Source of the DNA: an uncultured Holophagae bacterium
GTDB lineage: Bacteria > Acidobacteriota > Holophagae > Acanthopleuribacterales > Acanthopleuribacteraceae
NCBI GenBank assembly: GCA_964423555.1
Contig: CAYRFM010000136.1
Span: forward strand, 1 to 14,838
Reading direction: 5' to 3'
Length of the DNA stretch: 14,838 bases
A program made the translations under genes and the position numbers. Below are positions 1,723 to 14,838 of this stretch, one piece after another. Position 1 is the stretch's first letter. Each line of letters begins with the position of its first letter. Under the pieces are notes generated by a model. The model saw only the letters and a program-made list of their open reading frames with translations, was not told where the DNA came from and ran no database searches.

Positions 1723-4116
1723 ATGGCGAAGCCGCCCAGTTCCCCCCAGGAAAGCACCGAACCGATCCAACTCAAAGCACCCTGGCGCCTCCCCTGGTGG
1801 AGCCGATTGGACGCCTATCTCTTCGCCGAGATTCACTATCCGTTTTTCCTGGCGATGTTGGTCTACAACGGCATTTTCCTGATCCAGATCCTCAGCGAGG
1901 TCTCGCAGATCGGCAGCGGGCAATTTACGATTCCCTCGCGCCTGTTCCTGCTCGTGTTCCTCAGCCGTATCCCCGATATCCTGCCGCTGACATCCGCGCT
2001 CTCGTTCCTCTCCGGCACCCTCTTCGCGATGCGGCGCATGAGCGGCGACAGCGAGATCATTGCGCCGCAGTCCCTGGGCGTCAGCTTCTGGAGGGTCAAC
2101 CGCGCAATTTTCCTCTACGGCTTTTTGCTGGCGCTGGTCAACAGCTGCGTCATCAACTTCATGGGCCCCTACCTGACCCGCAAGGCCAAGGTCGAGTACC
2201 AGCACTTCATCGAATTCGAGGCCTTCCCCAACATCAATGAAGGCATCAACCAGCTCAGCAACAATGCCGTCATGTACGTCGACCGGGTCGAAGAGGGCAT
2301 GCTGGCCGGGATGATGATCCTCAACCGCAAGGACGCGGAGGAGGAGATCTACCTGGCGCGCAGAGCCTCGCTTTACACCAACCGCGAGGTTCATTTGGTC
2401 GACTGGACCATGTGCACCCTGCCGCGCACGTGGGATTCCACCAATGACATCCGCTTTCTCGACGGCAAGACCCTAGCCCGCCAGATTCCGGTGCCGACCA
2501 ACTTCGGCAAGGAGTATCATCCCGGCGAGCGCAGCGAGTTGGACACCCTGCAAATGTGGTCGGAAATCAAGGCACTGGGCGACAGGGTCCCACCCGAGCG
2601 CCTCTACGCGCTCTACCAGCGCCTGTTTTCGCCGCTGATCTTTCTGATCCTCGCCATGTTCGCCGTACCGCTGGCCGCGCGCCACCACCGCCAGAGCACG
2701 GGCTCGGGCGTCGGTTGGAGCTTGCTCTTTATCCTCATTCACTTCATGCTCACCAAGGTTTCCGGCGATCTGGCCGAGGAGCGGCGTCTCAGCCCCGAAC
2801 AGGGCGTGGCCCTGCCACTCTCGGTCCTGTTCGCCATCGGCTTCGTGCTCCAGGTCGGCAAGAACCTGTGGTGGAGCCAATACATCCGCAAGAACCAGGG
2901 CCGCATCGGCTACGCTCTGGAACGCGCCGCCCGCTTTGTCGGTCGGGGGCTTGCAGGCCTGTGGCGCATGATCACGCCCGCGCGCAATACCGCCAGCCGC
3001 AGCGCCGCGCAGACGTTTGTGTTCCCCAGCAAGCTGGACATGTACACCATCAAGTCGTTCTTTTCGATCCTGATCATGGTTCAGCTCTCATTCCTGTTGT
3101 TGTTCGTTTTGCTGGAGTACGTCCAGCTCAGCGACTCGATTCGCACCAACCACATCAGCGGTGAATTGGTCGTGACCTTCTTCCTCAACAAGCTGCCCAA
3201 CATGGTCGACGAGACTCTGTTCATCAGCCTGTTGATCGCGATTCTGCTGCTGTTCACCTTCATGAGCAAGAACCAGGAGATCGTGGCCATCCGCGCCGGC
3301 GGCGGCAGCATGCAGCGGCTCTGCCTGCCGCTGGTGTTCTGCGGTTTATTGGTCTCAGGCGGCGCCTTCTATCTGGAAAACATGTTCCTGCCCAACACCA
3401 ACCGCACCGCCCAGATCCTGCGCAACAAGATCCGCAACAAATCGGAGACGATGTTCACCCGCGATGTCTGGATGCGCACGAAGGAAGGCGTGATCCTCAA
3501 CTACACCCACTACGACGACCTCAAGAGCCGCCTGGTCGACGTGACCCGTTACCGCATCGAGGGCGATCCAGTGCAGCGGATCGAGCGCACCTCTTGGCCG
3601 ATCCTCGAGGCCCGCGGCGGCCAGCTCTGGAAGGTGGAAGTCCCTACCAAGGCCTGGCGCTTCCACTTCAACGGCCGCCTGGTCGAAAAGGTCGAACGCC
3701 TGGACATACCCAAGGACACCATGGTCGACCTGGGCTTCGACCTCGCCGAACTGCGCCACCACAAGCGCAAGGCAGCGGAGTTCAGCATCCACCAGCTACG
3801 CGACTACCTCAACTACCTCAAGAGCCTTGGCTACGTGGAGGGCCACTACCGCACCGAGCTCTACATCAAGTACGCCAAGCCCCTGATACCGCTGTTCATG
3901 ATGCTGCTGGCCATGCCGCTGGGGATCCAGGTCGGCCGCCGCGGCACCTTCTACGGCGTGGCGATCGGCTTTGGCGCCGGGCTATCGTTCCTCGGTTTCT
4001 TCGAACTTTGCAAGGAACTGGGCTCGTCGGGCACGCTCAACCCACTCGTCGCCGGCTGGTCAGTCGTCGTCGTCTACGGCTTCGTGGCGCTTTACCGCTT
4101 CATCAATCTCGAGTGA
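1723..4116 (+). CDS. lptFG: Fused LptF-LptG-like LPS export permease (two YjgP/YjgQ-family modules in one 797-aa polypeptide)
   Basis: Single uninterrupted ORF. The N-terminal half (aa ~25-400) shows the YjgP/YjgQ pattern: a TM helix, then RMSGDSEIIAPQSLGVSFWRV, a periplasmic beta-rich insert, then TM helices. The second half (aa ~440-797) repeats the pattern: MYTIKSFFSILIMVQLSFLLLFVLLEY...AIRAGGGSMQRL...periplasmic insert...C-terminal TM helices. LptF and LptG are normally separate adjacent genes. Confidence 0.7.
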   Translation: MAKPPSSPQESTEPIQLKAPWRLPWWSRLDAYLFAEIHYPFFLAMLVYNGIFLIQILSEVSQIGSGQFTIPSRLFLLVFLSRIPDILPLTSALSFLSGTLFAMRRMSGDSEIIAPQSLGVSFWRVNRAIFLYGFLLALVNSCVINFMGPYLTRKAKVEYQHFIEFEAFPNINEGINQLSNNAVMYVDRVEEGMLAGMMILNRKDAEEEIYLARRASLYTNREVHLVDWTMCTLPRTWDSTNDIRFLDGKTLARQIPVPTNFGKEYHPGERSELDTLQMWSEIKALGDRVPPERLYALYQRLFSPLIFLILAMFAVPLAARHHRQSTGSGVGWSLLFILIHFMLTKVSGDLAEERRLSPEQGVALPLSVLFAIGFVLQVGKNLWWSQYIRKNQGRIGYALERAARFVGRGLAGLWRMITPARNTASRSAAQTFVFPSKLDMYTIKSFFSILIMVQLSFLLLFVLLEYVQLSDSIRTNHISGELVVTFFLNKLPNMVDETLFISLLIAILLLFTFMSKNQEIVAIRAGGGSMQRLCLPLVFCGLLVSGGAFYLENMFLPNTNRTAQILRNKIRNKSETMFTRDVWMRTKEGVILNYTHYDDLKSRLVDVTRYRIEGDPVQRIERTSWPILEARGGQLWKVEVPTKAWRFHFNGRLVEKVERLDIPKDTMVDLGFDLAELRHHKRKAAEFSIHQLRDYLNYLKSLGYVEGHYRTELYIKYAKPLIPLFMMLLAMPLGIQVGRRGTFYGVAIGFGAGLSFLGFFELCKELGSSGTLNPLVAGWSVVVVYGFVALYRFINLE

Positions 4117-4468: not shown

Positions 4469-4813
4469 GTGCAGCAGGGTGCTGCACAATTACCCTGGTT
4501 CCAGGCCGGCGCCTTCAAGCCGGAGCACCTGGGCCAGCTCGGCTTCTACCTGACCGCCATCGACCGCGACATGAAGAGCGCGCACGACAACCCCACGATT
4601 GGGCTCTTGCTCTGCAAGACCAAGAACAAGGTGGTGGCCGAATACGCCCTGGGCGACAAGACGCAGCCAATGGGCATCGCCGAATATCGCCTGGCGCAAG
4701 CCTTGCCTGCCGAGCTGCAAACCAGCCTGCCCACGATTGAAGAAATCGAGCGGGCCCTCATGACAATATGGTTGAAGTTCGTGGCGCACTACCGCTTCAT
4801 CGACCTGGAATAA
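4469..4813 (+). pseudogene. C-terminal remnant of a YhcG/DUF1016-family PD-(D/E)XK nuclease gene (N-terminal catalytic part missing)
   Basis: FKPEHLGQLGFYLTAIDRDMKSAHDNPTIGLLLCKTKNKVVAEYALGDKTQPMGIAEY matches the conserved C-terminal block of YhcG-like proteins (FKPEY-GQLNFYL...NP-IGIILC...VEYAL). Upstream in frame there is a stop at 4385-4387 and no nuclease core. A perfect 10-bp-stem palindrome TTGTGCAGCA-GGG-TGCTGCACAA at 4467-4489 sits at the truncation point. Confidence 0.55.
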
Positions 4814-4819: not shown

Positions 4820-5773
4820 TCACTTAGCGAAAATATCCTCTGCCCGTCCAGCAACGAGCAAGTTTTTACCCCAACCCAGCACCGTGTCTGTGTCCGCAGC
4901 ATCTACTTTCGCCGCATTCTCAGCGGGCAGGTCACCAAACCGGGATTGATAGAGGGCCACAAACAATTTCTTTGCCCCTTGGCTCTCTCCTGCGCGCTGC
5001 GCTTCGTCCCAAGCCTGAACCCTAGGAGGACCAAATGTCCCAACTTCGAATCGCATGTTCACCTCCTGCTGTTCCCAATTCTGGACCTCAGCCACAGGGA
5101 TGTCAAGTTCTGGCGGCAAGGTCATGACGATATCGATGAAGTTCAATAGTGTCACAATTTCACCGCGATTGCGGCCGACGCGAAAGGCAAGCCGGAAAAG
5201 TTCGCGCTTCCAGCGCGCTCTTTGGTGGGGACTGCGCCGCGTTCTTGCGGAGTGCAGATGAGCAGCGACAACCAAGAGAAACGGGTTACAACCCGAGGCC
5301 AGTTTCTTGAGGTTGGGCTCCAGGTCAATTAACTTGACCACATTGAAGCGGTAATCGAGCGATGTGCCAAAGCAGCTGCGCTGGTAACCTTCCGGGCGCC
5401 AGTCACTCAGGTCCGTGAGAATCGCTAGCTGACAGATACCGTGCTTATCCCCCATTCGGTGGTCCAGCTCGAGGTAATAACCCAGCATGCGCTTGTTGAA
5501 ATGCGGCTGGGGTCGGTCCTGAACCTCGTTGTGAAGCATCACCAGAAAGTCGGAACCATCGAGCAAGTGAAGACGGACCAGTTTATCCAGGAAATGTCGA
5601 CGGCGCTGGCGAAAAGCGCTGGGCTTGGGAAGCTCCGAATCGCAAAACACAGGCGCCGCCTGCCAGTCGACTTTCGCCCACAGGTCCGGCAGAAACAACT
5701 CGAGCATGGGCGAAAGAAAATGCTCGATAACGTACTTCCAGGCGCCATCATAATGGGTCACCAATCTTGCCAT
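4820..5773 (-). CDS. Rpn-family (YhgA-like, DUF4351-containing) PD-(D/E)XK recombination-promoting nuclease or putative transposase
   Basis: Most likely start is the ATG at 5773 (MARLVTHYDGAWK), with AGGAGGG 6 nt upstream. The six-frame ORF extends to 5971, but that extension is AT-rich and not conserved-looking. The N-terminal YDGAWKYVIEHFLSPMLELFLPDL matches the D-D-WK...F-P signature of cyanobacterial-type Rpn proteins. LVMLHNEVQDRPQPHFNKRMLGYYLEL matches the IEVQ...RM-Y core. The C-terminus LFVALYQSRFGDLP...LGWGKNLLVAGRAEDI resembles DUF4351. The gene is ~50% GC against ~66% in flanking genes. Confidence 0.6.
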   Translation of the reverse strand: MARLVTHYDGAWKYVIEHFLSPMLELFLPDLWAKVDWQAAPVFCDSELPKPSAFRQRRRHFLDKLVRLHLLDGSDFLVMLHNEVQDRPQPHFNKRMLGYYLELDHRMGDKHGICQLAILTDLSDWRPEGYQRSCFGTSLDYRFNVVKLIDLEPNLKKLASGCNPFLLVVAAHLHSARTRRSPHQRARWKRELFRLAFRVGRNRGEIVTLLNFIDIVMTLPPELDIPVAEVQNWEQQEVNMRFEVGTFGPPRVQAWDEAQRAGESQGAKKLFVALYQSRFGDLPAENAAKVDAADTDTVLGWGKNLLVAGRAEDIFAK

Positions 5774-5989
5774 AGAGCCCTCCTGGCGGACGGCAGCCGC
5801 CTGAATAGGATGCAGAACTGAGCATGCCAAAATTATCCACGAATACTTTTCATCGTCAACCAGGGAAGGCGCGAGGGAGCTGTCAGCGCCTCCGTCGGGC
5901 CAGGACGTAAGGGTTGTGAAAAAAAGCACGAACTCGGGGAATGTATTTCTCCATAATTTCGCCTTAAGCATCTGAAGGCGAGTCGGTAC

Positions 5990-6056: not shown

Positions 6057-6662
6057 ATGGACGAGCTCATCGATGCCGCGCTTGCGATGACCACGTTGCC
6101 CTTGACGATCCTCATGGGCGTCGTCGCCCTTTATTGGCTCTCGGTGCTCCTGGGAATCTTCGATCTGCACCTGTTCGACGGCGATGTTGACCTCGACCTC
6201 GACAGCACAGGCTTTTTTGGCCACCATTTCGGCTTTGGCGACGCGCCCTTCATGCTGGGCTTCAGTCTGGTCGTCTTCTTCTCCTGGGGCATCGCCGTAC
6301 CGGTCGAACATCTGATCCATCCGCAGGGCGGCATTGCCTGGGCTGGCCTAGCTGGCATTGTCCTGACCGGCTACGTGCTGGCCAAATTCGCGGCCGTTCC
6401 TCTGGGCCGCATCTTCACGCATTTCAACAAGGAGCACGGTGCCGTCGACGCGGTCGAAGGCCAAGTCTGCACCCTGCTCTATGACACCAACAACCAGGTC
6501 ACCTCGCAGGGCCGCATTGTCACCAAGAGCTCGCCCGTCGAGATCAACGTGCGGGCGAGAGCGGGCCAGCAGCTGCCCCAAGGCAGTCGCGTGCTGGTCA
6601 TTGAAAAGGCCGAAACGGGCAACTACTATTACGTGGAAACCATCGAAGAATTGGAGCGTTGA
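6057..6662 (+). CDS. yqiJ: NfeD/YqiJ-like inner-membrane protein (N-terminal TM helices plus a C-terminal OB-fold beta domain), the usual operon partner of SPFH proteins
   Basis: 201 aa. The N-terminal half has 3-4 hydrophobic helices. The C-terminal region (VEGQVCTLLYDTNNQVTSQGRIVTKSSPVEINVRARAGQQLPQGSRVLVIEKAETGNYYYVE) is the soluble beta-rich NfeD-like domain. Its stop is 2 bp before the ATG of the downstream SPFH gene. Confidence 0.7.
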   Translation: MDELIDAALAMTTLPLTILMGVVALYWLSVLLGIFDLHLFDGDVDLDLDSTGFFGHHFGFGDAPFMLGFSLVVFFSWGIAVPVEHLIHPQGGIAWAGLAGIVLTGYVLAKFAAVPLGRIFTHFNKEHGAVDAVEGQVCTLLYDTNNQVTSQGRIVTKSSPVEINVRARAGQQLPQGSRVLVIEKAETGNYYYVETIEELER

Positions 6663-6664
6663 AC

Positions 6665-9106
6665 ATGGGTTTTTTCGAAGCATTTAGCGGTGTTGTCATC
6701 GCCATCGTCGTCCTTGGTCTGCTGGCGATTTTCACCCTGGCCATCAGGCTCTATCGGCGCGTACCCCAGGGCATGGCCCTGATCCGCAACAGTCCCGGCG
6801 GCGCCCACGTCTCCTTTCACGGCGCCCTAGTCCTGCCCTTCATCCACAAGGCCGAGATCATGGACATCACCGTCAAACGCATCGAGATCGCCCGTGCCGG
6901 CTCCGACGGCCTGATCTGTAAGGACAACCTCCGCGCCGACATCAAGGTCGCCTTCTTCGTGCGGGTCAACAAGACCGCCGACGACGTGCGCAGCGTCGCC
7001 GATATCCTCGGCGTCGACCGTGCCTCCGACCAGAACGCCCTGATCGGCCACTTCGACGCCAAGTTCTCCGAGGCCCTCAAGACCGTCGGCAAGCGCTTCA
7101 ACTTCGTCGAGCTCTACGAGGCACGCGACCACTTCAAGCGCGAGGTCACCGGCGTCATCGGCGAGGATCTGGACGGCTATCGCCTGATCGACTGCGCCAT
7201 CGACTACCTGGAGCAGACCGAAATCACCAACCTCAATCCGGACAATATCCTCGACGCCGAGGGCATCAAAAAGATCACCGAGCTGACCTCGACCCAAAAG
7301 ATCCTCGCCAACCAAATCGACCGCGACCGCGAGAAGACGATCAAGCGTCAGAACGTCGAGGCCGAGGAAGCCGTGCTGGAGTTGGACCGCCAACTGACCG
7401 AGAAGCAGGAGCGTCAGAAGCGCGAGGTCGCCGCCGTCAAGGCCCGTGAGGCCGCCGAGGCCCACAAGATCCAGCAGGAAGAGCGCCTCAAGGCCGAGGG
7501 CGCCCGCATCCGCACCGAGGAAGAGCTGTCGGTGGCCGAGCAGAACAAGCAGCGCCAGGTGATTGTCGCCGAGAAGAACAAGCAGCGCACCGAGGCGATC
7601 GAGAACGAGCGCATCATCAAGGACCAGCAGCTCGAACAGACCGAGCGCGAGCGGGTCGTCGATCTGGCCCGCATCGAAAAAGAGCGCGCCATCGAGTCCG
7701 AGCGCAAGAACATCCAGGACGTCATTCGCGAGAGGGTGGCCGTCGAGAAGACCGTCGTCGAGGAAGAAGAGAAGATCAAGGACACACGCGCCGTCGCCGA
7801 AGCCGAGCGCACCAAGAAGGTCACCGTCGTCGCCGCCGAGCGTGACGCGGAAGAGTCCCGCGTCAAGCTCGTCGTCAAGGCCCGTGCGGAAAAAGAGTCC
7901 GCCGAACAGCTGGCCCTCCAGAAAGTGATCGAGGCCGAAGCCGACCAGAAGGCCGCCGACAAGAGCGCCGAGGCCCGCAAGTTGCTGGCCGAGGCCGCCG
8001 CCGCCGAAGCCGCCGCGACGGGCCTGGCCGAGGTCAAGGTCGCCGCCGCCCGCGCCGAGGCCAAGGAACGCGAGGGTAGCGCGCAGGCCTTCGTGATCGA
8101 GAAAGTCGCCCTTGCCCAGGCCCAGGCCGCCGCCGCCAAGGCCGGCGCGCTGCGCACCGAGGGTGCCGCCGAGGCCGAGGTCATCGAGAAGAAAGCGCTC
8201 GCCGCCGCCAAGGCCGAGCAGGCCCAAGGCGCCGCCGAGGCCGAGGTCATCGAGAAGAAGGCGCTCGCCGCCGCCAAGGCCGAGCAGGCCCAAGGCTCCG
8301 CCGAGGCCGAGGTCATCGAGAAGAAAGCGCTCGCCGCCGCCAAGGCCGATGAGGCCCAGGGCAGTGCCGCCGCCGTCGTCATCGAGAAGAAGGCCCAGGC
8401 CGAGGCCAAAGGCATCGAGCTCAAGGCCGGCGCCCGCCGCACCGAAGGCGGTCTCGAGGCCGAAGTCCTCGAACAGAAAGCCCTCGCCCAGGCCCGCGCC
8501 GAGGAAGCCGCCGCCGCCGCCCTCGAGAAGACCGGCAGCGCCGAAGCCAACAACCTGCTCAAGAAGTTCCAAGCCGACGCCCAGGGCATCCGCGACAAGG
8601 CCGAGGCCATGAAGCTGTTCGACCCCTCCGGCCGTGCCCACGAGGAGTTCAAGCTGGTCACCGAACGGGACCGCCAACTGGCCCTGGCCCAGATCGAGAT
8701 GCAGAAGAGCATCGCCGCCGCCCAGGCCGAGGTTCTCTCCGCCGGCCTGCAATCGGCCAAGATCGAGATCATCGGCGGCGAGTCGATGTTCCTCGACAAG
8801 CTGCTCGGCTCCGTCACCCAGGCCAAGTCCGTCGACCACCTCGTCGGTGGCTCGAAGGTCCTCAACGACGTCAAGAACACCTTCTTCAACGGCGACCCCG
8901 CCTACTTCAAAAGCCAGCTCCACACCTTCATCGACCAGTTCGGTCTGGACAGCGAGGACATCAAGAACCTCAGCATCTCGGCCGCGATCCACAAGATGAT
9001 GAATGCCACCGCCGACGACCGCGCCCGCGGCGTGCTCTCCTCGATCCTCGGTTGGGCCGAGAAACTGGGGCTGGACGCCACCAAACTCGACGACTTCCGC
9101 AAGTGA
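6665..9106 (+). CDS. yqiK: SPFH/band-7 flotillin-like protein (YqiK/FloT-like), 814 aa, with an unusually long Ala/Glu-rich coiled coil containing tandem repeats
   Basis: N-terminal TM helix (VVIAIVVLGLLAIFTLAI), then an SPFH domain (ALVLPFIHKAEIMDITVKRIEIARAGSDGLICKDNLRADIKVAFFVRVNK...). A ~450-aa EA-rich helical region follows, then a flotillin C-terminal region. ATG at 6665 has GGAG 9 nt upstream. The six-frame track starts at TTG 6659. Confidence 0.85.
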   Translation: MGFFEAFSGVVIAIVVLGLLAIFTLAIRLYRRVPQGMALIRNSPGGAHVSFHGALVLPFIHKAEIMDITVKRIEIARAGSDGLICKDNLRADIKVAFFVRVNKTADDVRSVADILGVDRASDQNALIGHFDAKFSEALKTVGKRFNFVELYEARDHFKREVTGVIGEDLDGYRLIDCAIDYLEQTEITNLNPDNILDAEGIKKITELTSTQKILANQIDRDREKTIKRQNVEAEEAVLELDRQLTEKQERQKREVAAVKAREAAEAHKIQQEERLKAEGARIRTEEELSVAEQNKQRQVIVAEKNKQRTEAIENERIIKDQQLEQTERERVVDLARIEKERAIESERKNIQDVIRERVAVEKTVVEEEEKIKDTRAVAEAERTKKVTVVAAERDAEESRVKLVVKARAEKESAEQLALQKVIEAEADQKAADKSAEARKLLAEAAAAEAAATGLAEVKVAAARAEAKEREGSAQAFVIEKVALAQAQAAAAKAGALRTEGAAEAEVIEKKALAAAKAEQAQGAAEAEVIEKKALAAAKAEQAQGSAEAEVIEKKALAAAKADEAQGSAAAVVIEKKAQAEAKGIELKAGARRTEGGLEAEVLEQKALAQARAEEAAAAALEKTGSAEANNLLKKFQADAQGIRDKAEAMKLFDPSGRAHEEFKLVTERDRQLALAQIEMQKSIAAAQAEVLSAGLQSAKIEIIGGESMFLDKLLGSVTQAKSVDHLVGGSKVLNDVKNTFFNGDPAYFKSQLHTFIDQFGLDSEDIKNLSISAAIHKMMNATADDRARGVLSSILGWAEKLGLDATKLDDFRK
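8165..8420 (+). repeat. Intragenic 66-bp (22-aa) tandem repeats: three near-identical copies plus degenerate flanking copies
   Basis: GCCGCCGAGGCCGAGGTCATCGAGAAGAAAGCGCTCGCCGCCGCCAAGGCCGAGCAGGCCCAAGGC repeats at 8165-8230, 8231-8296 and 8297-8362 with 2-4 mismatches. It encodes AAEAEVIEKKALAAAKAEQAQG. Degenerate copies extend to ~8530. Confidence 0.85.
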
Positions 9107-9112
9107 CCGCCC

Positions 9113-9139
9113 GCGCGGGTGAGTGCCGCTCACCCGCGC
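9113..9139 (+). promoter_or_regulatory. Perfect GC-rich hairpin between the flotillin gene and the giant ATPase gene (possible terminator, attenuator or processing site)
   Basis: GCGCGGGTGAG-TGCCG-CTCACCCGCGC: an 11-bp perfect stem with a 5-nt loop, starting 7 nt after the flotillin stop. No U-tract follows. The downstream gene has its own GAGGG RBS at 9162-9166. Confidence 0.4.
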
Positions 9140-9173
9140 CGCGTCCCACGATCCTAACTGCGAGGGTGTCAGC

Positions 9174-12100
9174 ATGTCCGATCAGAACCCGGCGCCTGAG
9201 GGCGCCGCAGAAGGAACCCAGGTCCGCCTCGAGAGCGGCACCTACGAAGTCATCCGCGGCCGCCTGCAGGCCCAGGCCAACGAGCTCCAGAGCCGCCTCG
9301 ACGGGCTCAACCTCGTGCGCAAACAGACGTTCGGGGCCATCGAGACCCGCCTCACCGGCACCCAGCGCGTGCTCACCGCCAACAACTGCATCCCCCAGGA
9401 CATGTACGCCATCGGCGACTGCTTCCTGTTCGGCTACAACGTCCACCTGGGCCTGCGCACCGACCTCCAGCTCGAGGACGTCTTCGCCGTCTATGCCTAC
9501 GCCGACGGCCAGTTTCAGGCCCGCGACCTGAGCCTGATCCAGGACCCCGAGTTCGAAAAGGACTTCAAGAACCTCTACAAGTACTACAAGAACACCAGTT
9601 TCATCAAATTCGCCATCATCGGCCCGCACCTCTTCATGCAGTTCCAGATCGGCCGCGCCGTCACCGATTTCAAGACCTTCAAGTGGCTGATCGGCGACAG
9701 CGGCCTGACCTACCTGGACAGCCGCTCCGACCACGAGTTCAAAGTCCCGCCCCAGCACGACTTCGAGTGGTCCCGCGTGCGCCGCGACTGGTTCCGCATG
9801 GGCGCTCACCCCCACGTCTCGATCGAGGACCGCGTCTTCGTCGAAACCATCGGCGGCGACCTGACCATCAAGGTCGAGGACAACACCACCAGCGGCAGCG
9901 GCATCTACGCCGAACCCGTCGACCACCCCGATCAAACCCTCGACGACAGCGAGATCTACTACGCCGCCGTCGGCCACGTCATCCTTCTGAAGATCCTGCC
10001 CTACCAGGAGAAAAAGTACCGCTACTTCGTCTACAACGAGAAGCTTCAGGAGGCGCTGAGAGTCGACCCCATCGGTGAGAGCTGCGTCTTCTTGCCCGAC
10101 GGCCACGGCCTGATCTTCCCCCGCGGCTACTATCTCCAGACCGGCATGCTCAAGCTCTTCGAGGCCCAGGTCGCCGGCCTGGCTTTCGAAAAGCGCCTGA
10201 CCTCGCCCAATGGCGAGGACTTCCTCTACATCTTCTATAACCGCGAGAGCGGCGTCTATGTCCTGCTCAGTTACAACCTGATCCAGCAAAAGGTCGAGAG
10301 CCCGATCGTCTGTAACGGCTACAGCTTCTTCGCCGATGGCACCCTGATCTACTTCCGGGCCGAGGAGCAGCCCGGCAAGCACCATTCGGTCCAAATTTGG
10401 CAAACCCCATACACCCGCGAGGGCTTCGACCTCGGCCAGCAGCATAACTCGCCCATCGCCCGCATCGGCAACAAGGACATCGTCCGCGCCATGGCCGAGT
10501 GCGGCGAGGTCCTGACCCTGGTGCGCAAGGAGGACAGCTACGCCAACCTCTACGTCGACATCGCCCGCAAGTGCACCGACATCGTCGACAGCTACTTCTG
10601 GCTGCGCGAGGAGGCCACCGCCGACCTCCACGCCGCGCTCGGCGCCATCGCCGCCGCCGCCCGCTCCGCCATCGACGAATTTGACAAAGTCAGCCGCATC
10701 AAAAAGACCACCCGCGAGGAGATCGAGCGCGTCGCCGCCGCCGCGGCCGCCCTGTTCAAGCAGATCGCCCGCACGCCCCTGCGCCAGGTCGACGAGTTCG
10801 TCGCCAGCCTGACCAAACTGCGCAGCCTGCGCGGCGAGGCCATCTCCTGCCGCGAGCGCCGCTACGCCGACAGCGCCCGCATCGACGCCCTCGAGACGCA
10901 GATCCGCGAACACGCCGAACAACTCTCCAGCGCCTGCGTCGCCTTCCTGCTCCGCGACGAGGCCCTCGCCCCCTACCAGAGCCGCCAGCTCCGACTCGAG
11001 CAGCAACTGGCCGAGGTCCGCACCGTCGCCGCCGCCCGTGCCCTCGAGCAGGAGCTGGACGGCTCCAGCCGCGAGCTCGAGCTGCTGATCGAGATCGTCT
11101 CCAACCTCAAGATCGACGACGCCACCCAGACGACCCGCATTATCGACGCCGTCAGCGCCATCTTCGCCGAGCTCAACCGCCTCAAGGCCGCCCTCAAGAA
11201 CCGCGTCCTCGAGTTGGCCCGCAGCGAGGGCGTGGCCGAGTTCAACGCCCAGCTCAAACTGCTCGCCCAGTCCGTCACCAACTACCTGGACGTCTGCGAT
11301 AGCCCCGACAAATGCGAGTCCTATCTGACGAAACTGACCGTCCAGGTCGAGGAGCTGGAGGGCCGTTTCAGCGAGTTTGACGAGTTCATCAACCAGCTCG
11401 TCGAGAAGCGCGAAGAGATCTACAACGCCTTTGAAGCCAAGCGCCTGGCTCTGGTCGAGGCGCGCAACAAGAAGGCCGCCGCGCTGTTCTCCGCCGCCGA
11501 GCGCATCCTTGCCGGCATCCGCAACCGCGCCGCCAAGTTCGACCAGGTCGCCGAGATCAACGGCTACTTCGCCGGCGACCTGATGGTCGAAAAACTGCGC
11601 AACCTCATTGATCAGCTCGTCGCCCTGGAGGACACCGTCAAGGCCGACGACCTCCAGGCCCGCCTCAAGACCATCCGCGAAGAAACCGTCCGCCAGCTCA
11701 AAGACCGCCAAGAATTGTTCGACGGCGGCACCAACCTGATCCGCTTCGGCAACCACGCCTTCAGCGTCAATACCCAGGCCCTGGCCCTGACCATGGTCGT
11801 GCGCGATGGCCAGCAGTGCTACCACCTGGCCGGCACCGACTTCTTCGAACCCGTCGCCGACCCCGCCTTCCTCGAGACCCGCGCCGTCTGGGACCAGGAA
11901 CTCGTCAGCGAGACCGCGACCGTCTACCGCGCCGAGTTCCTGGCCTGGCGCCTGCTGCAAACACTCGACCAGGGCGACCCCCACCAGCTGCTCTGTGCGA
12001 GCGCCGAGGAGCTGCCCGAGCGGGTGCGCCTGTTCGCCGGACCCCGCTACGCCGAGGGCTACACCAAGGGCGTCCACGACGGCGATGCCGCCCTGCTGCT

Positions 12101-14549
12101 CGCCAACTTGCTCGAGCTGCGCCGCGGCCTCGGCCTGCTGGCCTGGCCCAGCCGCGCCCGCGCCCTGGCGGCGCTCTATTGGCACCGCTTCTGCCCCGAG
12201 CCCCTGCGACTGCACTGGCGCGCCACCTGCGCCGGCCTAGCCACTTTGTTCGAGTTCTATCCCAGCGCCAGCGCTTCAGCCCGTCATGTCGCCGAGATCG
12301 CCGAGCAGCTGCGCGCCTTCGTCGCCGCCACCGCCCTGTTCGCGCCCGAGCTCGTCGACGACGCCGCCGCCGCACTGTTCAACCAGCTCCAGCAGGGTGA
12401 CGGCTTCGCCATCGCCGTCGAGGCCAGCGAGCTCTACCGCGGCTTCGCCTCGCAGATCGCCCATCGCGGCTTCCAGGAGCGCCTGCAGGCCGCCCTGCGC
12501 GAACTGGAGCGGGAGCCCGCCCGCGCCTTCCAGCTGACCCGCGAGTGGGTCCGCGCTTACCGCGAGCACGAGACCAAGATCGACGCCCAGTTCGAGGACG
12601 AGGCCGCCGTGCTCTACCTCACCGACAGCTGGGCCGCCACCAGAGTCGGCAGCCTGACCTGCGCGCGCCTGCTCGAGGGCTTCAAGGGCAGCCACGCCGT
12701 CCTCGACCAGGGCCGCTACCAGCTCGACTTTTACAGCTTCCGCACACGCTTGGCCACCTACGACCGCGAGCTGGTCCCGCGCTTCGAGCACTACACCGCC
12801 CAAAAGAAGCGCCTGCTCGAGGAAAGCGCCCGCACCATGCGCCTTGACGAGTTCAAGCCCAAGGTCCTGACCAGCTTCGTGCGCAACCAGCTGCTCGACA
12901 AGGTCTACCTGCCCCTGATCGGCGACAACCTGGCCAAGCAGATCGGTGCCGCCGGCGCCGGCACGCGCACTGACCGCATGGGCATGTTGCTGCTGATCTC
13001 ACCGCCCGGCTACGGCAAGACGACCCTGATGGAGTACATCGCCAACCGTCTCGGCCTGATCTTCATGAAGATCAACGGCCCGGCCCTGGGCCACGAGGTC
13101 ACCTCCCTCGACCCCGCCGCCGCGCCCCATGCCGCCGCCCGCGAGGAGCTCCACAAGCTCAGCCTTAGCTTCGAGATGGGCGACAACGTCATGATCTACG
13201 TCGACGACATCCAGCACTGCAACCCCGAGTTCCTGCAAAAGTTCATCTCACTCTGCGACGCCCAGCGCAAGATCGAGGGCGTCTACAAGGGCCGCACCCG
13301 CACCTACGACTTCCGCGGTCGCAAGGTCGCCGTCGTCATGGCCGGCAACCCCTACACCGAGAGCGGTGCCAAGTTCCGCATCCCCGACATGCTCGCCAAC
13401 CGCGCCGACACCTATAACCTGGGCGACATCATCGGCGACAACGCCGAGAGCTTCGAGCTCTCCTACATCGAGAACGCCCTGACCTCGAACCCCGTCCTCA
13501 ACAAGTTGGCCGCGCGCAGCACCAAGGACGTCCTGACCCTGGCCCAGGCGGCCCGCAGCGGTAGCCGCGACGGCCTCGAGCTGGAGGGCAACTACGGCGC
13601 CGAGGAACTGGCCGAGTTCACCGCCGTGCTGCAGAAGCTGTTCCGGGTCCGCGACGTCATTTTGCAGGTCAACCTGGCCTACATCAAGAGCGCCGCCATG
13701 GAGGACGCCTACCGCACCGAACCGGCCTTCAAGCTCCAGGGCAGTTACCGCAACATGAACAAGATCGCCGAGAAGGTGTTGCCGATCATGAACGAGGCCG
13801 AACTCGAAGGCCTGATCCGCACCCACTATGAGAACGAGGCCCAAACGCTGACCAGCGGCGCCGAGGCCAACCTGCTCAAGTTCCGCGAGCTGTGCGGCAC
13901 CCTGAAAGGCGCGGAGGCCGAGCGCTGGCAAGAGATCAAACGCAGCTTCGCCGGGCGCCAGCGCCTGCAGGGCATCGACACCAGCGATAAGCTCGGCCAG
14001 GCCGTGGCCCAGCTGCAGGCCTTCGCCAACGGCCTGGACGCCATCAAAGAGCTGCTGGCCAAGGGCATCGACCAGCAGTACAAGCTGGCCAAATGGGAGG
14101 CCAAGCAAAAGACCGAACCCCGCGACCCGACGGCACCCCAGCACACCCACACGACCCTGGCCCCCGAGACTCTGACCCGCCTGGCCGCGCTGCTGGAACC
14201 GCTCAGCCAGAACCTGGCCCAGGCCCTGGCCCAAGCGACCAAGGCACCGCTGATCGTGCCAGCCGCCGCGCCGGCGCCGGTTCCAGCGCCAGCACCACAG
14301 CAGAGTCAAACCGAAGAAGCGCTAGGCAAATACCTGGCCGCCCGCGACAAGGAGCAGCAGTACCTATTGAAACTGCTGCGCCAGCAATTCGAGGTCATGC
14401 AGCATTGGCTGAAGCCGACCTACGAAACGACCAAGGCCCACGACGCCACCATGGACAGCCTGACCAGTGCCGTCAACAACCTGATGGCGACCCACGGCAG
14501 CCTGCTCAACTACCTCCAACAATTCGAAGGCAAACGCCCCCGCACCTAA
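9174..14549 (+). CDS. Giant (~1,790 aa) multidomain protein: N-terminal beta-rich domain, long helical/coiled-coil middle, C-terminal AAA+ ATPase domain of the AAA_5 (MoxR/CbbQ/dynein-related) type, and a helical tail after a Pro/Ala linker
   Basis: Preferred start is ATG 9174 (MSDQNP), with GAGGG 7 nt upstream. The six-frame ORF starts at GTG 9123, inside the hairpin. Walker A LLLISPPGYGKTTLMEY at ~13000-13030. Walker B NVMIYVDDIQH at ~13190-13215. Sensor-1 VAVVMAGNPYTESG. A MLANRADTYNL motif resembles the ALLDRF motif of AAA_5. The first ~450 aa are aromatic and beta-rich (YAIGDCFLFGYNVHLG, FLYIFYNRESGVYVLLSYNL, SFFADGTLIYF). Residues ~480-1250 are helical, Ala/Leu/Glu/Arg-rich. A PAAAPAPVPAPAPQQ linker precedes the last ~80 aa. 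Confidence 0.8.
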   Translation: MSDQNPAPEGAAEGTQVRLESGTYEVIRGRLQAQANELQSRLDGLNLVRKQTFGAIETRLTGTQRVLTANNCIPQDMYAIGDCFLFGYNVHLGLRTDLQLEDVFAVYAYADGQFQARDLSLIQDPEFEKDFKNLYKYYKNTSFIKFAIIGPHLFMQFQIGRAVTDFKTFKWLIGDSGLTYLDSRSDHEFKVPPQHDFEWSRVRRDWFRMGAHPHVSIEDRVFVETIGGDLTIKVEDNTTSGSGIYAEPVDHPDQTLDDSEIYYAAVGHVILLKILPYQEKKYRYFVYNEKLQEALRVDPIGESCVFLPDGHGLIFPRGYYLQTGMLKLFEAQVAGLAFEKRLTSPNGEDFLYIFYNRESGVYVLLSYNLIQQKVESPIVCNGYSFFADGTLIYFRAEEQPGKHHSVQIWQTPYTREGFDLGQQHNSPIARIGNKDIVRAMAECGEVLTLVRKEDSYANLYVDIARKCTDIVDSYFWLREEATADLHAALGAIAAAARSAIDEFDKVSRIKKTTREEIERVAAAAAALFKQIARTPLRQVDEFVASLTKLRSLRGEAISCRERRYADSARIDALETQIREHAEQLSSACVAFLLRDEALAPYQSRQLRLEQQLAEVRTVAAARALEQELDGSSRELELLIEIVSNLKIDDATQTTRIIDAVSAIFAELNRLKAALKNRVLELARSEGVAEFNAQLKLLAQSVTNYLDVCDSPDKCESYLTKLTVQVEELEGRFSEFDEFINQLVEKREEIYNAFEAKRLALVEARNKKAAALFSAAERILAGIRNRAAKFDQVAEINGYFAGDLMVEKLRNLIDQLVALEDTVKADDLQARLKTIREETVRQLKDRQELFDGGTNLIRFGNHAFSVNTQALALTMVVRDGQQCYHLAGTDFFEPVADPAFLETRAVWDQELVSETATVYRAEFLAWRLLQTLDQGDPHQLLCASAEELPERVRLFAGPRYAEGYTKGVHDGDAALLLANLLELRRGLGLLAWPSRARALAALYWHRFCPEPLRLHWRATCAGLATLFEFYPSASASARHVAEIAEQLRAFVAATALFAPELVDDAAAALFNQLQQGDGFAIAVEASELYRGFASQIAHRGFQERLQAALRELEREPARAFQLTREWVRAYREHETKIDAQFEDEAAVLYLTDSWAATRVGSLTCARLLEGFKGSHAVLDQGRYQLDFYSFRTRLATYDRELVPRFEHYTAQKKRLLEESARTMRLDEFKPKVLTSFVRNQLLDKVYLPLIGDNLAKQIGAAGAGTRTDRMGMLLLISPPGYGKTTLMEYIANRLGLIFMKINGPALGHEVTSLDPAAAPHAAAREELHKLSLSFEMGDNVMIYVDDIQHCNPEFLQKFISLCDAQRKIEGVYKGRTRTYDFRGRKVAVVMAGNPYTESGAKFRIPDMLANRADTYNLGDIIGDNAESFELSYIENALTSNPVLNKLAARSTKDVLTLAQAARSGSRDGLELEGNYGAEELAEFTAVLQKLFRVRDVILQVNLAYIKSAAMEDAYRTEPAFKLQGSYRNMNKIAEKVLPIMNEAELEGLIRTHYENEAQTLTSGAEANLLKFRELCGTLKGAEAERWQEIKRSFAGRQRLQGIDTSDKLGQAVAQLQAFANGLDAIKELLAKGIDQQYKLAKWEAKQKTEPRDPTAPQHTHTTLAPETLTRLAALLEPLSQNLAQALAQATKAPLIVPAAAPAPVPAPAPQQSQTEEALGKYLAARDKEQQYLLKLLRQQFEVMQHWLKPTYETTKAHDATMDSLTSAVNNLMATHGSLLNYLQQFEGKRPRT

Positions 14550-14569: not shown

Positions 14570-14838
14570 TGTGGCGCAACTTCCAAAGTTGCGCTGGTCG
14601 CAGTCACGACCAGTTCGCCAAACAGGGCGCAAGTCGCATCAGGTTTTGTAGCGCAAATTCCAAATTTGCGCCGTAGCAGTCACGACCAGCTTGCCAAACA
14701 GGGTGCAAGTCGCATTAGGGTTTGTAGCGCAAATTCCAAATTTGCGCCGTCGCAGTCACGATCTGCTTGCCAAACAGGGCGCAAGTCGCACCAAAGTTTG
14801 TAGCGCAAATTCCAAATTTGCGCCGTCGCAGTCACGAC
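14570..14838. repeat. 76-bp tandem repeat array (at least 3.5 copies, continuing beyond the window end), each unit carrying a 9-bp-stem hairpin
   Basis: Units start at ~14570, 14647, 14723 and 14799. Consensus: TGTAGCGCAAATTCCAAATTTGCGCCGTCGCAGTCACGACCAGCTTGCCAAACAGGGCGCAAGTCGCAYYARRGTT. The palindrome GCGCAAATT-CCA-AATTTGCGC appears in units 2-4. Unit 1 has GCGCAACTT-CCA-AAGTTGCGC, a compensatory double change that preserves pairing. Units are ~85-95% identical over their full length. Confidence 0.85.

Follow-up and report, generated by a model that had tools for sequence, protein, structure and literature searches.

A giant DUF3686-family AAA+ ATPase encoded directly downstream of a flotillin gene, and its proposed role in remodelling flotillin assemblies

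To which family does a bacterial ATPase of 1,791 residues belong, and what might it do? These questions are raised by a stretch of 14,838 nucleotides from an uncultured Holophagae bacterium (contig CAYRFM010000136.1), referred to here as the window. The reading frame for the giant protein is real: it begins with an ATG at position 9174, which is preceded by GAGGG, and ends with a stop codon at 14547–14549. An earlier note on this DNA had held that the protein could not be assigned to a named family, and had named a full match to a known family as the finding that would count against this view. Such a match was found, to Pfam DUF3686, DUF7902 and AAA and to the NCBI product 'DNA repair ATPase', and the claim therefore falls. 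DUF3686 (PF12458) aligns over its entire profile (positions 1–448 of 448; aa 37–475; E 1.2e-184, 614.5 bits), DUF7902 (PF25472) lies inside the helical region (aa 596–678; E 1e-25, 90 bits against a gathering threshold of 26), and the Pfam profiles AAA and AAA_5 match as well.

More than 4,600 homologues were retrieved at E < 1e-3, and NCBI names the product 'DNA repair ATPase'. The 120 matches listed are 50–61% identical to the giant ATPase and collinear with it end to end, mostly over 91–100% of the query; none among these matches exceeds 61% identity. The family is spread over Planctomycetota, Verrucomicrobiota, Bacteroidota, Acidobacteriota, Actinomycetota, Deinococcus, Desulfobacterales and some Proteobacteria. 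Its N-domain occurs essentially only at the N-terminus of proteins of 1,550–2,036 aa, shorter matches having the look of fragments, and in one homologue an NfeD1b_N domain is fused N-terminally to the ATPase. None of the three proteins of the gene cassette described below is covered by an NCBIfam model, and a search of the literature on the DUF3686/DUF7902 family and on flotillin-associated ATPases found no experimental study of the family. Judged by sequence, then, the giant protein is a member of a widespread and catalogued DUF3686 family that is experimentally uncharacterised. Long antisense reading frames at 6827–9175 and 8970–12215 (minus strand) were set aside; they look like shadows of GC-rich coding sequence, and scanning of such frames gave no Pfam matches. 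Promoter and terminator scans around the cassette genes stayed at chance level, and Rfam gave no matches.

The order of parts in the protein (Table 1) was much as the earlier note had described it, being borne out by the full-length reading frame and by homologues aligned end to end; two AF2 models cover the protein, with pLDDT values of 85.7 and 83.3. A beta-rich, aromatic N-terminus with a possible propeller fold had been proposed. The residues F, W and Y make up 15% of aa 59–410 versus 6% of the helical region, the AF2 model (pLDDT 85.7) contains about 27 strands, consistent with six to seven four-stranded blades, and Foldseek matched the domain to 6- and 7-bladed propellers with a probability of 1.0. 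As modelled, the N-domain has an irregular, propeller-like fold of six to seven blades. The helical middle has the total length of about 750 residues claimed for it, but it consists of two blocks split by a small beta module, and Pfam found no match in the second block. The earlier note had likened it to a dynein or SMC stalk; the helices resemble spectrin-like bundles and lie N-terminal to the AAA module. The Pro-Ala linker and the tail were found where expected and are the part of the protein that the family conserves least, conservation falling after approximately aa 1620 and the tail being gap-rich in homologues. Foldseek also returned architecture-level matches to eukaryotic coat and IFT proteins, which the layout of a propeller followed by a helical rod loosely recalls.

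Table 1. Features of the giant ATPase and of the two genes upstream, in window positions
Feature	Residues	Position (nt)	Strand	Basis or remark
YqiJ/YuaF-type (NfeD-like) inner-membrane protein, cassette gene 1	201 aa	6057..6662	+	BLASTP, hydropathy
Flotillin-like SPFH protein (YqiK/FloT type), cassette gene 2	815 aa	6659..9106	+	Band_7, YqiK match
66-nt tandem repeat in flotillin coiled coil, 3.4 copies, 22-aa units AEAEVIEKKALAAAKAEQAQG		8165..8391	+	TRF, 91% matches
Flotillin C-terminal domain	~168 aa (648-815)	8600..9103	+	candidate docking module
Giant soluble ATPase, DUF3686 / 'DNA repair ATPase' family	1,791 aa	9174..14549	+	ORF, Pfam, homologue alignment
N-terminal long helix	19-53	9228..9332	+	AF2 DSSP
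Beta-rich propeller-like domain, core of Pfam DUF3686 (aa 37-475)	59-410	9348..10403	+	
First helical region, rod of spectrin-like helical bundles	427-848	10452..11717	+	
DUF7902, within first helical region	596-678	10959..11207	+	Pfam
Small beta module between two helical regions	855-893	11736..11852	+	both AF2 models; conserved
Second compact all-alpha domain, directly before AAA+ core	919-1240	11928..12893	+	AF2, pLDDT mostly 88-98
AAA+ alpha/beta core	1250-1420	12921..13433	+	
Walker A SPPGYGKTT	1276-1284	12999-13025	+	only P-loop in the protein
Walker B VMIYVDD	1339-1345	13188-13208	+	
Pre-sensor-1 beta-hairpin	1366-1379	13269-13310	+	AF2
Sensor 1 AGN in AAA+ core	N1392			
Putative Arg finger, in LANRAD	R1410			
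Enlarged helical lid	1421-1600	13434..13973	+	AF2, alignment
Sensor-2-like motif QGSYR in lid	R1526	13749-13751	+	
C-terminal long helices	1601-1684	13974..14225	+	AF2
Pro/Ala-rich disordered linker	1685-1714	14226..14315	+	23% Pro, pLDDT <50, gap-rich and variable in homologues
Variable helical tail, weakly conserved LRxQFxLMxxWxxP motif	1715-1791	14316..14546	+	alignment, AF2

The single AAA_5-like core that had been placed near the C-terminus was confirmed, with a marginal score: AAA_5 (PF07728) reached 22.5 bits with the whole protein and 25.6 bits with the isolated segment, just above a gathering score of 22, over profile positions 2–125 of 139, and scored 25.2 and 28.3 bits in homologues. 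The DUF3686 family motifs SPPGYGKTT, DDIQH, AGNP, NRAD and GSYR are all present, and the AAA+ motifs are essentially invariant in the 67–69 representative clusters that span them (clusters at 50% identity, 73 aligned rows). Two inserts of the AAA_5 clade had been suggested as a check, and one of them was recovered. In the AF2 model, strands at aa 1366–1371 and 1374–1379 precede beta4 (1385–1391; pLDDT ~86–92) and form a pre-sensor-1 hairpin between alpha3 and beta4. The helix-2 hairpin was not seen in the model; the beta2–alpha2 interval holds a conserved 18-residue segment, GPALGHEVTSLDPAAAPH (aa 1302–1319), modelled as a short helix plus coil. Assignment to the dynein/MoxR class is favoured by the marginal AAA_5 score and by structure, the closest structural neighbours of the module being members of the MoxR/AAA_5 clade, but sequence comparison with the PDB did not bear it out. 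A profile of 33 AAA regions, run against all PDB sequences, matched p97/Cdc48 and RuvB, in each case only locally at the P-loop, and found no MoxR; searches of the PDB with the whole giant protein and with the flotillin likewise gave P-loop matches only or nothing. The classical AAA clade (PF00004: p97, FtsH, Vps4) gave no full-length profile match that included the second region of homology. The AAA+ module has catalytically intact motifs and a pre-sensor-1 insert and, as modelled, is structurally closest to MoxR, dynein and midasin. Because its Walker B motif ends in DD rather than DE, hydrolysis may be slow or regulatory, and because the loop after beta2 (KINGPALGHEV) carries no aromatic pore-loop motif, the protein probably acts as a MoxR/dynein-style remodeller and not as a threading unfoldase.

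A module of this kind could belong to a conventional MoxR-type chaperone that matures an enzyme complex or inserts its cofactor, as in the pairs CbbQ/CbbO, NorQ/NorD and RavA/ViaA, in which case a neighbouring flotillin would be incidental or would serve only to place the chaperone at the membrane. We consider this unlikely. The VWA/MIDAS partner is missing, as the earlier note had already remarked: scans of window reading frames turned up no VWA domain, and the neighbours of 85 related loci included no conserved VWA gene. Nor was a conserved enzyme gene found beside the ATPase among the neighbours of related loci. With 1,791 aa, the protein is roughly six times as long as a MoxR ATPase and has N-terminal domains specific to its family, and the lack of a MoxR chain among the PDB matches and of an evident helix-2 hairpin in the AF2 model also argues against this reading.

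The decisive context, which the earlier note had missed, is provided by the two genes upstream, which by sequence are those of a YqiJ/NfeD-like protein and a flotillin; the giant ATPase is gene 3 of the cassette. Hydropathy analysis found no transmembrane segments in the ATPase, which is taken to be a soluble protein of the cytoplasm, and both of its cassette partners are membrane proteins. The first has approximately three transmembrane segments by hydropathy and a C-terminal soluble domain. It is weakly similar to E. coli YqiJ (BLASTP E 1e-4, collinear over 189 aa); Pfam found no match in the window's own protein, and YqiJ_N was matched at 3.6e-8 in the orthologue from locus L014. The second, which is likely to start at an ATG at 6665, 3 nt past the upstream stop, consists of an N-terminal transmembrane segment or hairpin (hydropathy indicates a single segment at aa 1–35), a Band_7 domain, a long Ala/Glu/Lys coiled coil and a C-terminal domain. 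It matches E. coli YqiK at 5e-49, with 32% identity over 445 aa (BLASTP), and its N-terminal 214 aa match Band_7 at 1.8e-9 (38.4 bits against a gathering threshold of 23.6). Whole-protein Pfam scans of the partner flotillin gave no match, because the coiled coil suppresses the Band_7 score, and automated context analysis therefore hides the linkage of ATPase and flotillin. Only 67 nt separate the flotillin gene from that of the giant ATPase on the same strand.

The C-terminal domain of the flotillin, about 170 aa, did not align with E. coli YqiK, and it is 35–61% identical across cassette flotillins. Among 72,556 plasmid records it was matched in 11, all 11 of which also carry the N-domain of the giant ATPase, the two adjoining wherever coordinates were compared; the SPFH domain alone matched 308 records. 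By these counts the domain is specific to flotillins whose genes adjoin that of the giant ATPase; it is a candidate docking module.

The linkage extends well beyond the window. Of 62 related loci, drawn from many phyla, 59 have a flotillin gene immediately before that of the ATPase and on its strand; the other three have no adjacent flotillin. A YqiJ-like gene lies upstream in 51. Linkage of this consistency across phyla argues that the flotillin neighbourhood is not incidental, and so counts further against the MoxR-chaperone explanation. PspA accompanies the cassette in 15 of the 62 loci and CesT_Tir in 11; neither was found in the window. The same operon, sometimes with PspA and CesT/Tir, has already been described by comparative genomics, with chaperone-like roles in sub-membrane assembly proposed for it (Ravi et al. 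2024, PMC11237479), and the window cassette is the 'abbreviated' form of that operon, without the CesT/Tir–PspA dyad. On a Streptomyces plasmid the annotation reads 'flotillin family protein' followed by 'DNA repair ATPase', in the same order. The ATPase is not mentioned in papers on the SPFH proteins of P. aeruginosa, on flotillin-associated rhodopsins, on the evolution of SPFH proteins or on NTP-dependent conflict systems. An apparent flotillin–ATPase fusion (P0234) was rejected as a probable gene-calling artefact: the metagenomic fragment is short, and the first 70 aa of its N-domain are missing.

Both the Pfam description of DUF3686 and the NCBI product name speak of DNA repair, and a repair ATPase of SMC/Rad50 type would use its long coiled coil to bridge DNA ends and its head to bind DNA. 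We regard this as highly improbable. The Walker A and B motifs are 60 residues apart within one AAA+ core (aa 1276–1345) and are not split by a coiled coil as in SMC and Rad50, and the helices of the giant resemble spectrin-type bundles, not the antiparallel coiled coil of those proteins. Pfam and NCBIfam detected no ABC-type fold, no known DNA-binding domain and no SMC or ABC match. Weak similarity to RuvB_N around the P-loop remains below the gathering threshold, and NCBIfam RuvB scores are 24 bits against a cut-off of 282. PADLOC weakly matched LmuB, an SMC-like protein (E 7.6e-5), but this match is limited to helical sequence and was rejected as compositional. The conserved neighbours are the membrane proteins flotillin, YqiJ and PspA, with no nuclease or recombinase among them, and no paper was found that ties the family to such a role. 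The product name 'DNA repair ATPase', which has been carried through thousands of genomes, is almost certainly a misnomer.

Thirdly, the cassette might serve in conflict or defence, for instance through abortive infection, in which case the propeller would sense an invader and the flotillin and NfeD proteins would perturb the membrane. Several observations point in this direction. Some copies are carried by plasmids or megaplasmids, among them pQBR103 of P. fluorescens and plasmids of Streptomyces, Deinococcus and Hymenobacter; the C-terminal tail is variable, and one homologue (P0065) has HEAT repeats in its place, at approximately aa 1762–1852; in the window, 1.2 kb before the cassette begins, there is a remnant of PDC-S02, a PADLOC candidate; and the combination of a large NTPase and a repeat 'sensor' domain is reminiscent of conflict NTPases, STAND proteins included. 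We nevertheless think a defence role improbable, since a scan of the three cassette proteins against 5,027 PADLOC models gave no meaningful score, and the N-domain and catalytic sequences are highly conserved across the family, with no hypervariable sensor seen. Only 13 of 72,556 plasmid records carry the ATPase, several of them chromosome-sized, and the flanking genes differ from locus to locus and are mostly housekeeping genes. The recurrent partners are the envelope-stress genes PspA and CesT/Tir and polyamine genes (PMC11237479), and on pQBR103 itself the cassette lies downstream of PspA and polyamine genes.

The reading that we favour is that the giant ATPase carries out ATP-driven remodelling of flotillin assemblies, and of PspA assemblies, at the inner membrane, and does not act in DNA repair; we give this somewhat better than even odds, a probability of roughly 0.55. 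Against it count the three loci in which no flotillin adjoins the ATPase gene and the DD ending of Walker B. By analogy with its structural relatives, the ATPase would oligomerise into a ring. Either its N-terminal propeller and rod or its variable tail could dock it to the flotillin assembly from the cytoplasmic side, the likely contact point being the cassette-specific C-terminal domain of the flotillin; physical contact between the two proteins is something we infer from gene linkage alone. ATP might then be used for assembly, disassembly or reshaping of flotillin scaffolds, or for handing clients to them, the same action perhaps extending to PspA where the operon encodes it, and the cassette may form part of an envelope or membrane-stress response. 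Precedents for such coupling exist: the AAA+ protease FtsH sits within SPFH cages of HflK/C, and the AAA+ protein Vps4 takes ESCRT-III polymers apart. More speculatively, and as a distinctly less probable proposal, the family could be the first motor that is driven by ATP and dedicated to the flotillin scaffolds of bacteria, a ring-forming AAA+ machine of MoxR/dynein type whose propeller-tipped, spectrin-like arms would grip the C-terminal domain of the flotillin while ATP hydrolysis would open, close or recycle the cage, along with PspA polymers where these are encoded. If that were so, bacteria would own an active, energy-consuming membrane-microdomain machine. For the membrane biology of bacterial flotillins or of PspA, the linkage predicts a step that consumes energy and lends itself to a direct test.

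The MoxR proteins CbbQ (6l1q) and NorQ (9qh4) are stand-alone proteins of ~260–300 aa that work with the VWA partners CbbO and NorD, whereas the AAA+ module of the giant lies at aa 1250–1600 of 1,791, with no VWA partner, a DD Walker B, an enlarged lid, no evident helix-2 hairpin and no sequence-level match to them. Dynein and midasin (Rea1/Mdn1) concatenate six AAA modules per chain, whereas the giant has one; in dynein the stalk is a coiled-coil hairpin inserted into AAA4, unlike the spectrin-like bundles that precede the AAA module here. In the bacterial inner membrane, the SPFH scaffold HflK/HflC is coupled in its function to the AAA+ protease FtsH (PMC13220708), and the cassette resembles this system in that the gene of an SPFH-family membrane scaffold is paired with that of an AAA+ ATPase. 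FtsH is a membrane-anchored AAA protease of the classical clade, whereas the giant has neither a transmembrane segment nor a protease domain and belongs to another AAA+ clade, and its SPFH partner is of flotillin/YqiK type and not HflK/C. Homologues of cassette genes 1 and 2 follow each other in this order in E. coli yqiJ–yqiK and B. subtilis yuaF–floT, which encode an SPFH2 protein and its NfeD-like partner (Hinderhofer et al. 2009, PMC2636767); those operons have no third, ATPase gene, and the cassette flotillin carries an extra C-terminal domain absent from YqiK. With the DUF3686 cassette of PMC11237479, the window copy has in common the full-length collinear architecture, the signature motifs and the neighbourhood of YqiJ/YuaF, Band-7/flotillin and ATPase genes.

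The reading frame at window positions 9174–14549 (+ strand) is real. Frame +1 is open from a GTG at 9123 through the stop codon at 14547–14549; the likely start is the ATG at 9174, with GAGGG just before it, giving a product of 1,791 aa. This giant ATPase contains no hydrophobic segment (maximum Kyte-Doolittle value for a 19-mer, 1.29) and is predicted to be soluble. In Pfam, its N-terminus matches the full DUF3686 profile (E 1.2e-184) and residues 596–678 match DUF7902 (E 1e-25). In a search of 5.8 billion proteins, over 4,600 homologues scored E < 1e-3. The 120 matches listed are 1,596–1,950 aa long, have the same Pfam set, and carry the NCBI names 'DNA repair ATPase' or 'ATPase involved in DNA repair', some being called 'MoxR-like ATPase' by JGI. 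An exhaustive HMMER search with the N-terminal domain (the DUF3686 core, here N-domain) gave 740 clusters at 50% identity. The N-domain is N-terminal in all full-length members (1,550–2,036 aa); the architecture is thus fixed and specific to the family, of which the window protein is a full member. The earlier note had placed the protein in no named family; it belongs in full to the DUF3686 / 'DNA repair ATPase' family. No experimental study of this family was found in the literature. The giant ATPase adds a member to a family that is catalogued but uncharacterised; as the operon context of this family has been published before, the novelty of the protein is limited.

Alignment of 120 homologues is collinear with the giant ATPase from end to end. 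Identity is 73–91% in the AAA+ core (aa 1231–1440) versus 45–79% in the N-domain, and the last ~170 aa are gap-rich with only 13–24% identity. Two AlphaFold2 models, each based on 98-sequence alignments, had pLDDT values of 85.7 (aa 1–900) and 83.3 (aa 851–1791). The alignment and the modelled layout agree with the domain order and motif calls of the earlier note, including its Pro-Ala linker with a tail and the propeller-like N-domain that it gave as one possibility; its observation is confirmed and its interpretation supported in part. The ~750-aa middle region that it described is helical but does not form one block, there being two different helical blocks with a small beta module between them, and its analogy to a stalk does not hold. 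The protein has a single P-loop and a single hhhhDD motif. A genuine role in DNA repair is very improbable: nothing beyond the inherited name speaks for it, and when the SMC/Rad50 layout was tested the protein did not show it.

Domain layout of the giant ATPase
Feature	Position (aa)	Source
N-terminal helix	19–53	AlphaFold2
~27 beta-strands	59–410	AlphaFold2
Helices of 16–58 residues each	427–848	AlphaFold2
Small beta module	855–893	AlphaFold2
Compact all-alpha domain, high confidence	919–1240	AlphaFold2
AAA+ alpha/beta core	1250–1420	AlphaFold2
Enlarged helical lid	1421–1600	AlphaFold2
Long helices	1601–1684	AlphaFold2
Disordered Pro/Ala-rich segment (23% Pro, pLDDT < 50)	1685–1714	
Helical tail	1715–1791	AlphaFold2

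In the ATPase region, Pfam AAA_5 scored 22.5–25.6 bits against a gathering score of 22, with the profile nearly fully covered. AAA_22 was also matched, AAA was matched over the first half of its profile only, and RuvB_N fell below threshold. The pre-sensor-1 insert is present in the AlphaFold2 model as a beta-hairpin (aa 1366–1379) between alpha3 and beta4, and the helix-2 position holds a conserved 18-residue segment not modelled as a hairpin. The AAA_5 score and the pre-sensor-1 hairpin uphold the AAA+ class proposed earlier. In the PDB, phmmer and a 33-sequence profile of the AAA region picked up p97/Cdc48 and RuvB alone, through local similarity at the P-loop; on sequence alone the module is not placed with MoxR. 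A conventional MoxR chaperone acting with a VWA partner seems unlikely, because no VWA gene is present, an absence already remarked upon from the sequence. Across the 50%-identity representative clusters covering each motif, Walker A (SPPGYGKTT), Walker B (DDIQH), sensor 1 (N1392), R1410 and GSYR (R1526) are essentially invariant, and for this reason the ATPase is presumably active. Walker B residues 1344–1345 (window 13203–13208) are DD, not DE, in 68 of 68 covering representative clusters; the usual catalytic glutamate is aspartate throughout the family. Since the loop after beta2 is without an aromatic pore-loop motif, the protein would fit better as a MoxR/dynein-like remodeller than as a threading unfoldase.

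Two genes lie directly upstream on the same strand, and both belong with the ATPase gene, a context missing from the earlier note. The product of the nearer one (6659–9106) had no Pfam match as a whole protein, and the precomputed Pfam fields of its orthologues are likewise empty; automated neighbourhood analyses therefore miss the flotillin-ATPase linkage. Its first 214 aa alone match Band_7/SPFH (1.8e-9; 38.4 bits, gathering score 23.6), and the protein matches the E. coli flotillin YqiK (5e-49) and has one N-terminal transmembrane segment. The other gene (6057–6662) encodes a product with ~3 transmembrane segments that matches E. coli YqiJ weakly but collinearly, and its orthologue in one related locus matches Pfam YqiJ_N. 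YqiJ and YuaF are held to be NfeD homologues (Hinderhofer et al. 2009, PMC2636767). Packing of this cassette is tight, with a 4-nt overlap or 3-nt gap between the YqiJ-like and flotillin genes, then 67 nt to the ATPase gene. The C-terminal ~170 aa of the flotillin gave no alignment to E. coli YqiK. Among 72,556 plasmid records, 308 matched the SPFH domain and only 11 the flotillin C-terminal domain, all 11 being among the 13 with the ATPase N-domain; the C-terminal domain is cassette-specific. The 308 SPFH-matching records include 229 from Escherichia and 27 from Shigella, and plasmids typed as conjugative make up 260 of them. These flotillin-like genes have < 60% identity to the query, and none of the Escherichia or Shigella records matched the C-terminal domain or the ATPase. 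The flotillin gene also contains a 66-nt tandem repeat (8165–8391; 3.4 copies, 91% match) encoding 22-aa units (AEAEVIEKKALAAAKAEQAQG), so coiled-coil length probably varies between strains.

We analyzed 83 related loci with the ATPase gene (80 from GTDB genomes and three by protein look-up), to which the window and one Streptomyces plasmid locus were later added. In 62 of the loci, the sequence ahead of the ATPase gene was longer than 3.2 kb; among these, a same-strand flotillin gene was found upstream in 59, a YqiJ-like gene in 51, PspA/IM30 in 15 and CesT_Tir_1 in 11. The loci span Planctomycetota, Verrucomicrobiota, Bacteroidota, Acidobacteriota, Desulfobacterales, Kiritimatiellota, Omnitrophota and Hydrogenedentes. 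The Streptomyces plasmid is annotated 'flotillin family protein' then 'DNA repair ATPase'. On P. fluorescens pQBR103, genes for PspA, a rhomboid protease, DUF2491, DUF350, DUF1190 and glutathionylspermidine synthase precede, in order, a hypothetical protein, an SPFH protein and 'DNA repair ATPase'. Gaps of 0.5–1.7 kb separate flotillin and ATPase genes in L017, L022, L026, L039, L041, L046, L052, L056–L059, L064, L071, L072, L074 and L077, and hold small ORFs mostly unrelated to one another. Homologue P0128 carries NfeD1b_N (E 3.4e-15) fused ahead of DUF3686, and the C-terminal region of homologue P0065 includes HEAT repeats (~aa 1762–1852). Such fusions are rare; they link the ATPase with NfeD/SPFH systems and suggest that the tail is an exchangeable adaptor. 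That the cassette is a defence or conflict module is doubtful, given its conserved sequences, the lack of PADLOC matches, and partners that are stress-response genes. Four-element operons including CesT/Tir-PspA and a 3-TM YqiJ/YuaF protein, and more widespread abbreviated operons without PspA, have been described, with chaperone-like roles proposed in assembly of sub-membrane complexes (Ravi et al. 2024, mSystems, PMC11237479). The PspA and CesT_Tir_1 genes in Bacteroidota loci confirm that the cassette is this same system.

Elsewhere in the window, a 435-aa ORF (306–1613, +) has a DCC1-like thiol-disulfide oxidoreductase domain at aa 306–416 only; the protein probably starts much further downstream, or else the N-terminal 300 aa of the ORF are an unrecognised domain. 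Long overlapping ORFs occur here on both strands, as is typical of GC-rich DNA. A single 797-aa ORF (1723–4116, +) contains two LptF_LptG permease stretches (E 1.9e-108), and LptF and LptG therefore appear fused into one polypeptide. The 114-aa ORF at 4469–4813 (+) matches PDC-S02, a candidate defence gene in PADLOC (E 8e-37), and also phrog_22762, in both cases over the C-terminal ~90 residues only. It seems to be what is left, after truncation, of a longer gene, which by eye we take to have encoded a YhcG/PD-(D/E)XK-like nuclease. The 383-aa ORF at 4820–5971 (−) lies in a lower-GC stretch (~55–57% vs ~65% elsewhere) and had no match in Pfam, NCBIfam, PHROGs or PADLOC; a resemblance to Rpn/PD-(D/E)XK 'transposase-like' proteins is seen by eye. 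The two ORFs could jointly represent a small insertion, mobile or degraded, in the interval from the lptFG gene to the cassette. A tandem array (14570–14838; 76-nt period, 3.5 copies, 89% match) begins 21 nt past the ATPase stop and extends to the contig end, each unit holding the palindrome GCGCAAATTCCAAATTTGCGC. It is not a CRISPR, because entire units recur and there are no unique spacers between them. It had no Rfam match and resembles an intergenic repeat of REP or MITE type; the assembly probably broke because of it.

The giant ATPase has a single AAA+ module that is catalytically intact, and as a rule its gene goes together with those of a specialised flotillin and an NfeD-like membrane protein, often also with that of PspA. 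Like its structural relatives it would form a ring, and it may dock on the flotillin assembly in the cytoplasm. The probable contacts are the cassette-specific C-terminal domain of the flotillin and, on the ATPase, the propeller-rod arm or variable tail. During membrane stress it would spend ATP on putting flotillin or PspA assemblies together, taking them apart or reshaping them, or on handing clients to them. We assign a probability of roughly 0.55 to the general reading of an ATP-driven remodeller or partner of flotillin or PspA assemblies. Known parallels are FtsH, enclosed by HflK/C cages, and Vps4, which acts on ESCRT-III. The protein is a good experimental target in that it predicts some energy-dependent step in the biology of bacterial flotillins and exposes widespread misannotation as 'DNA repair ATPase'.
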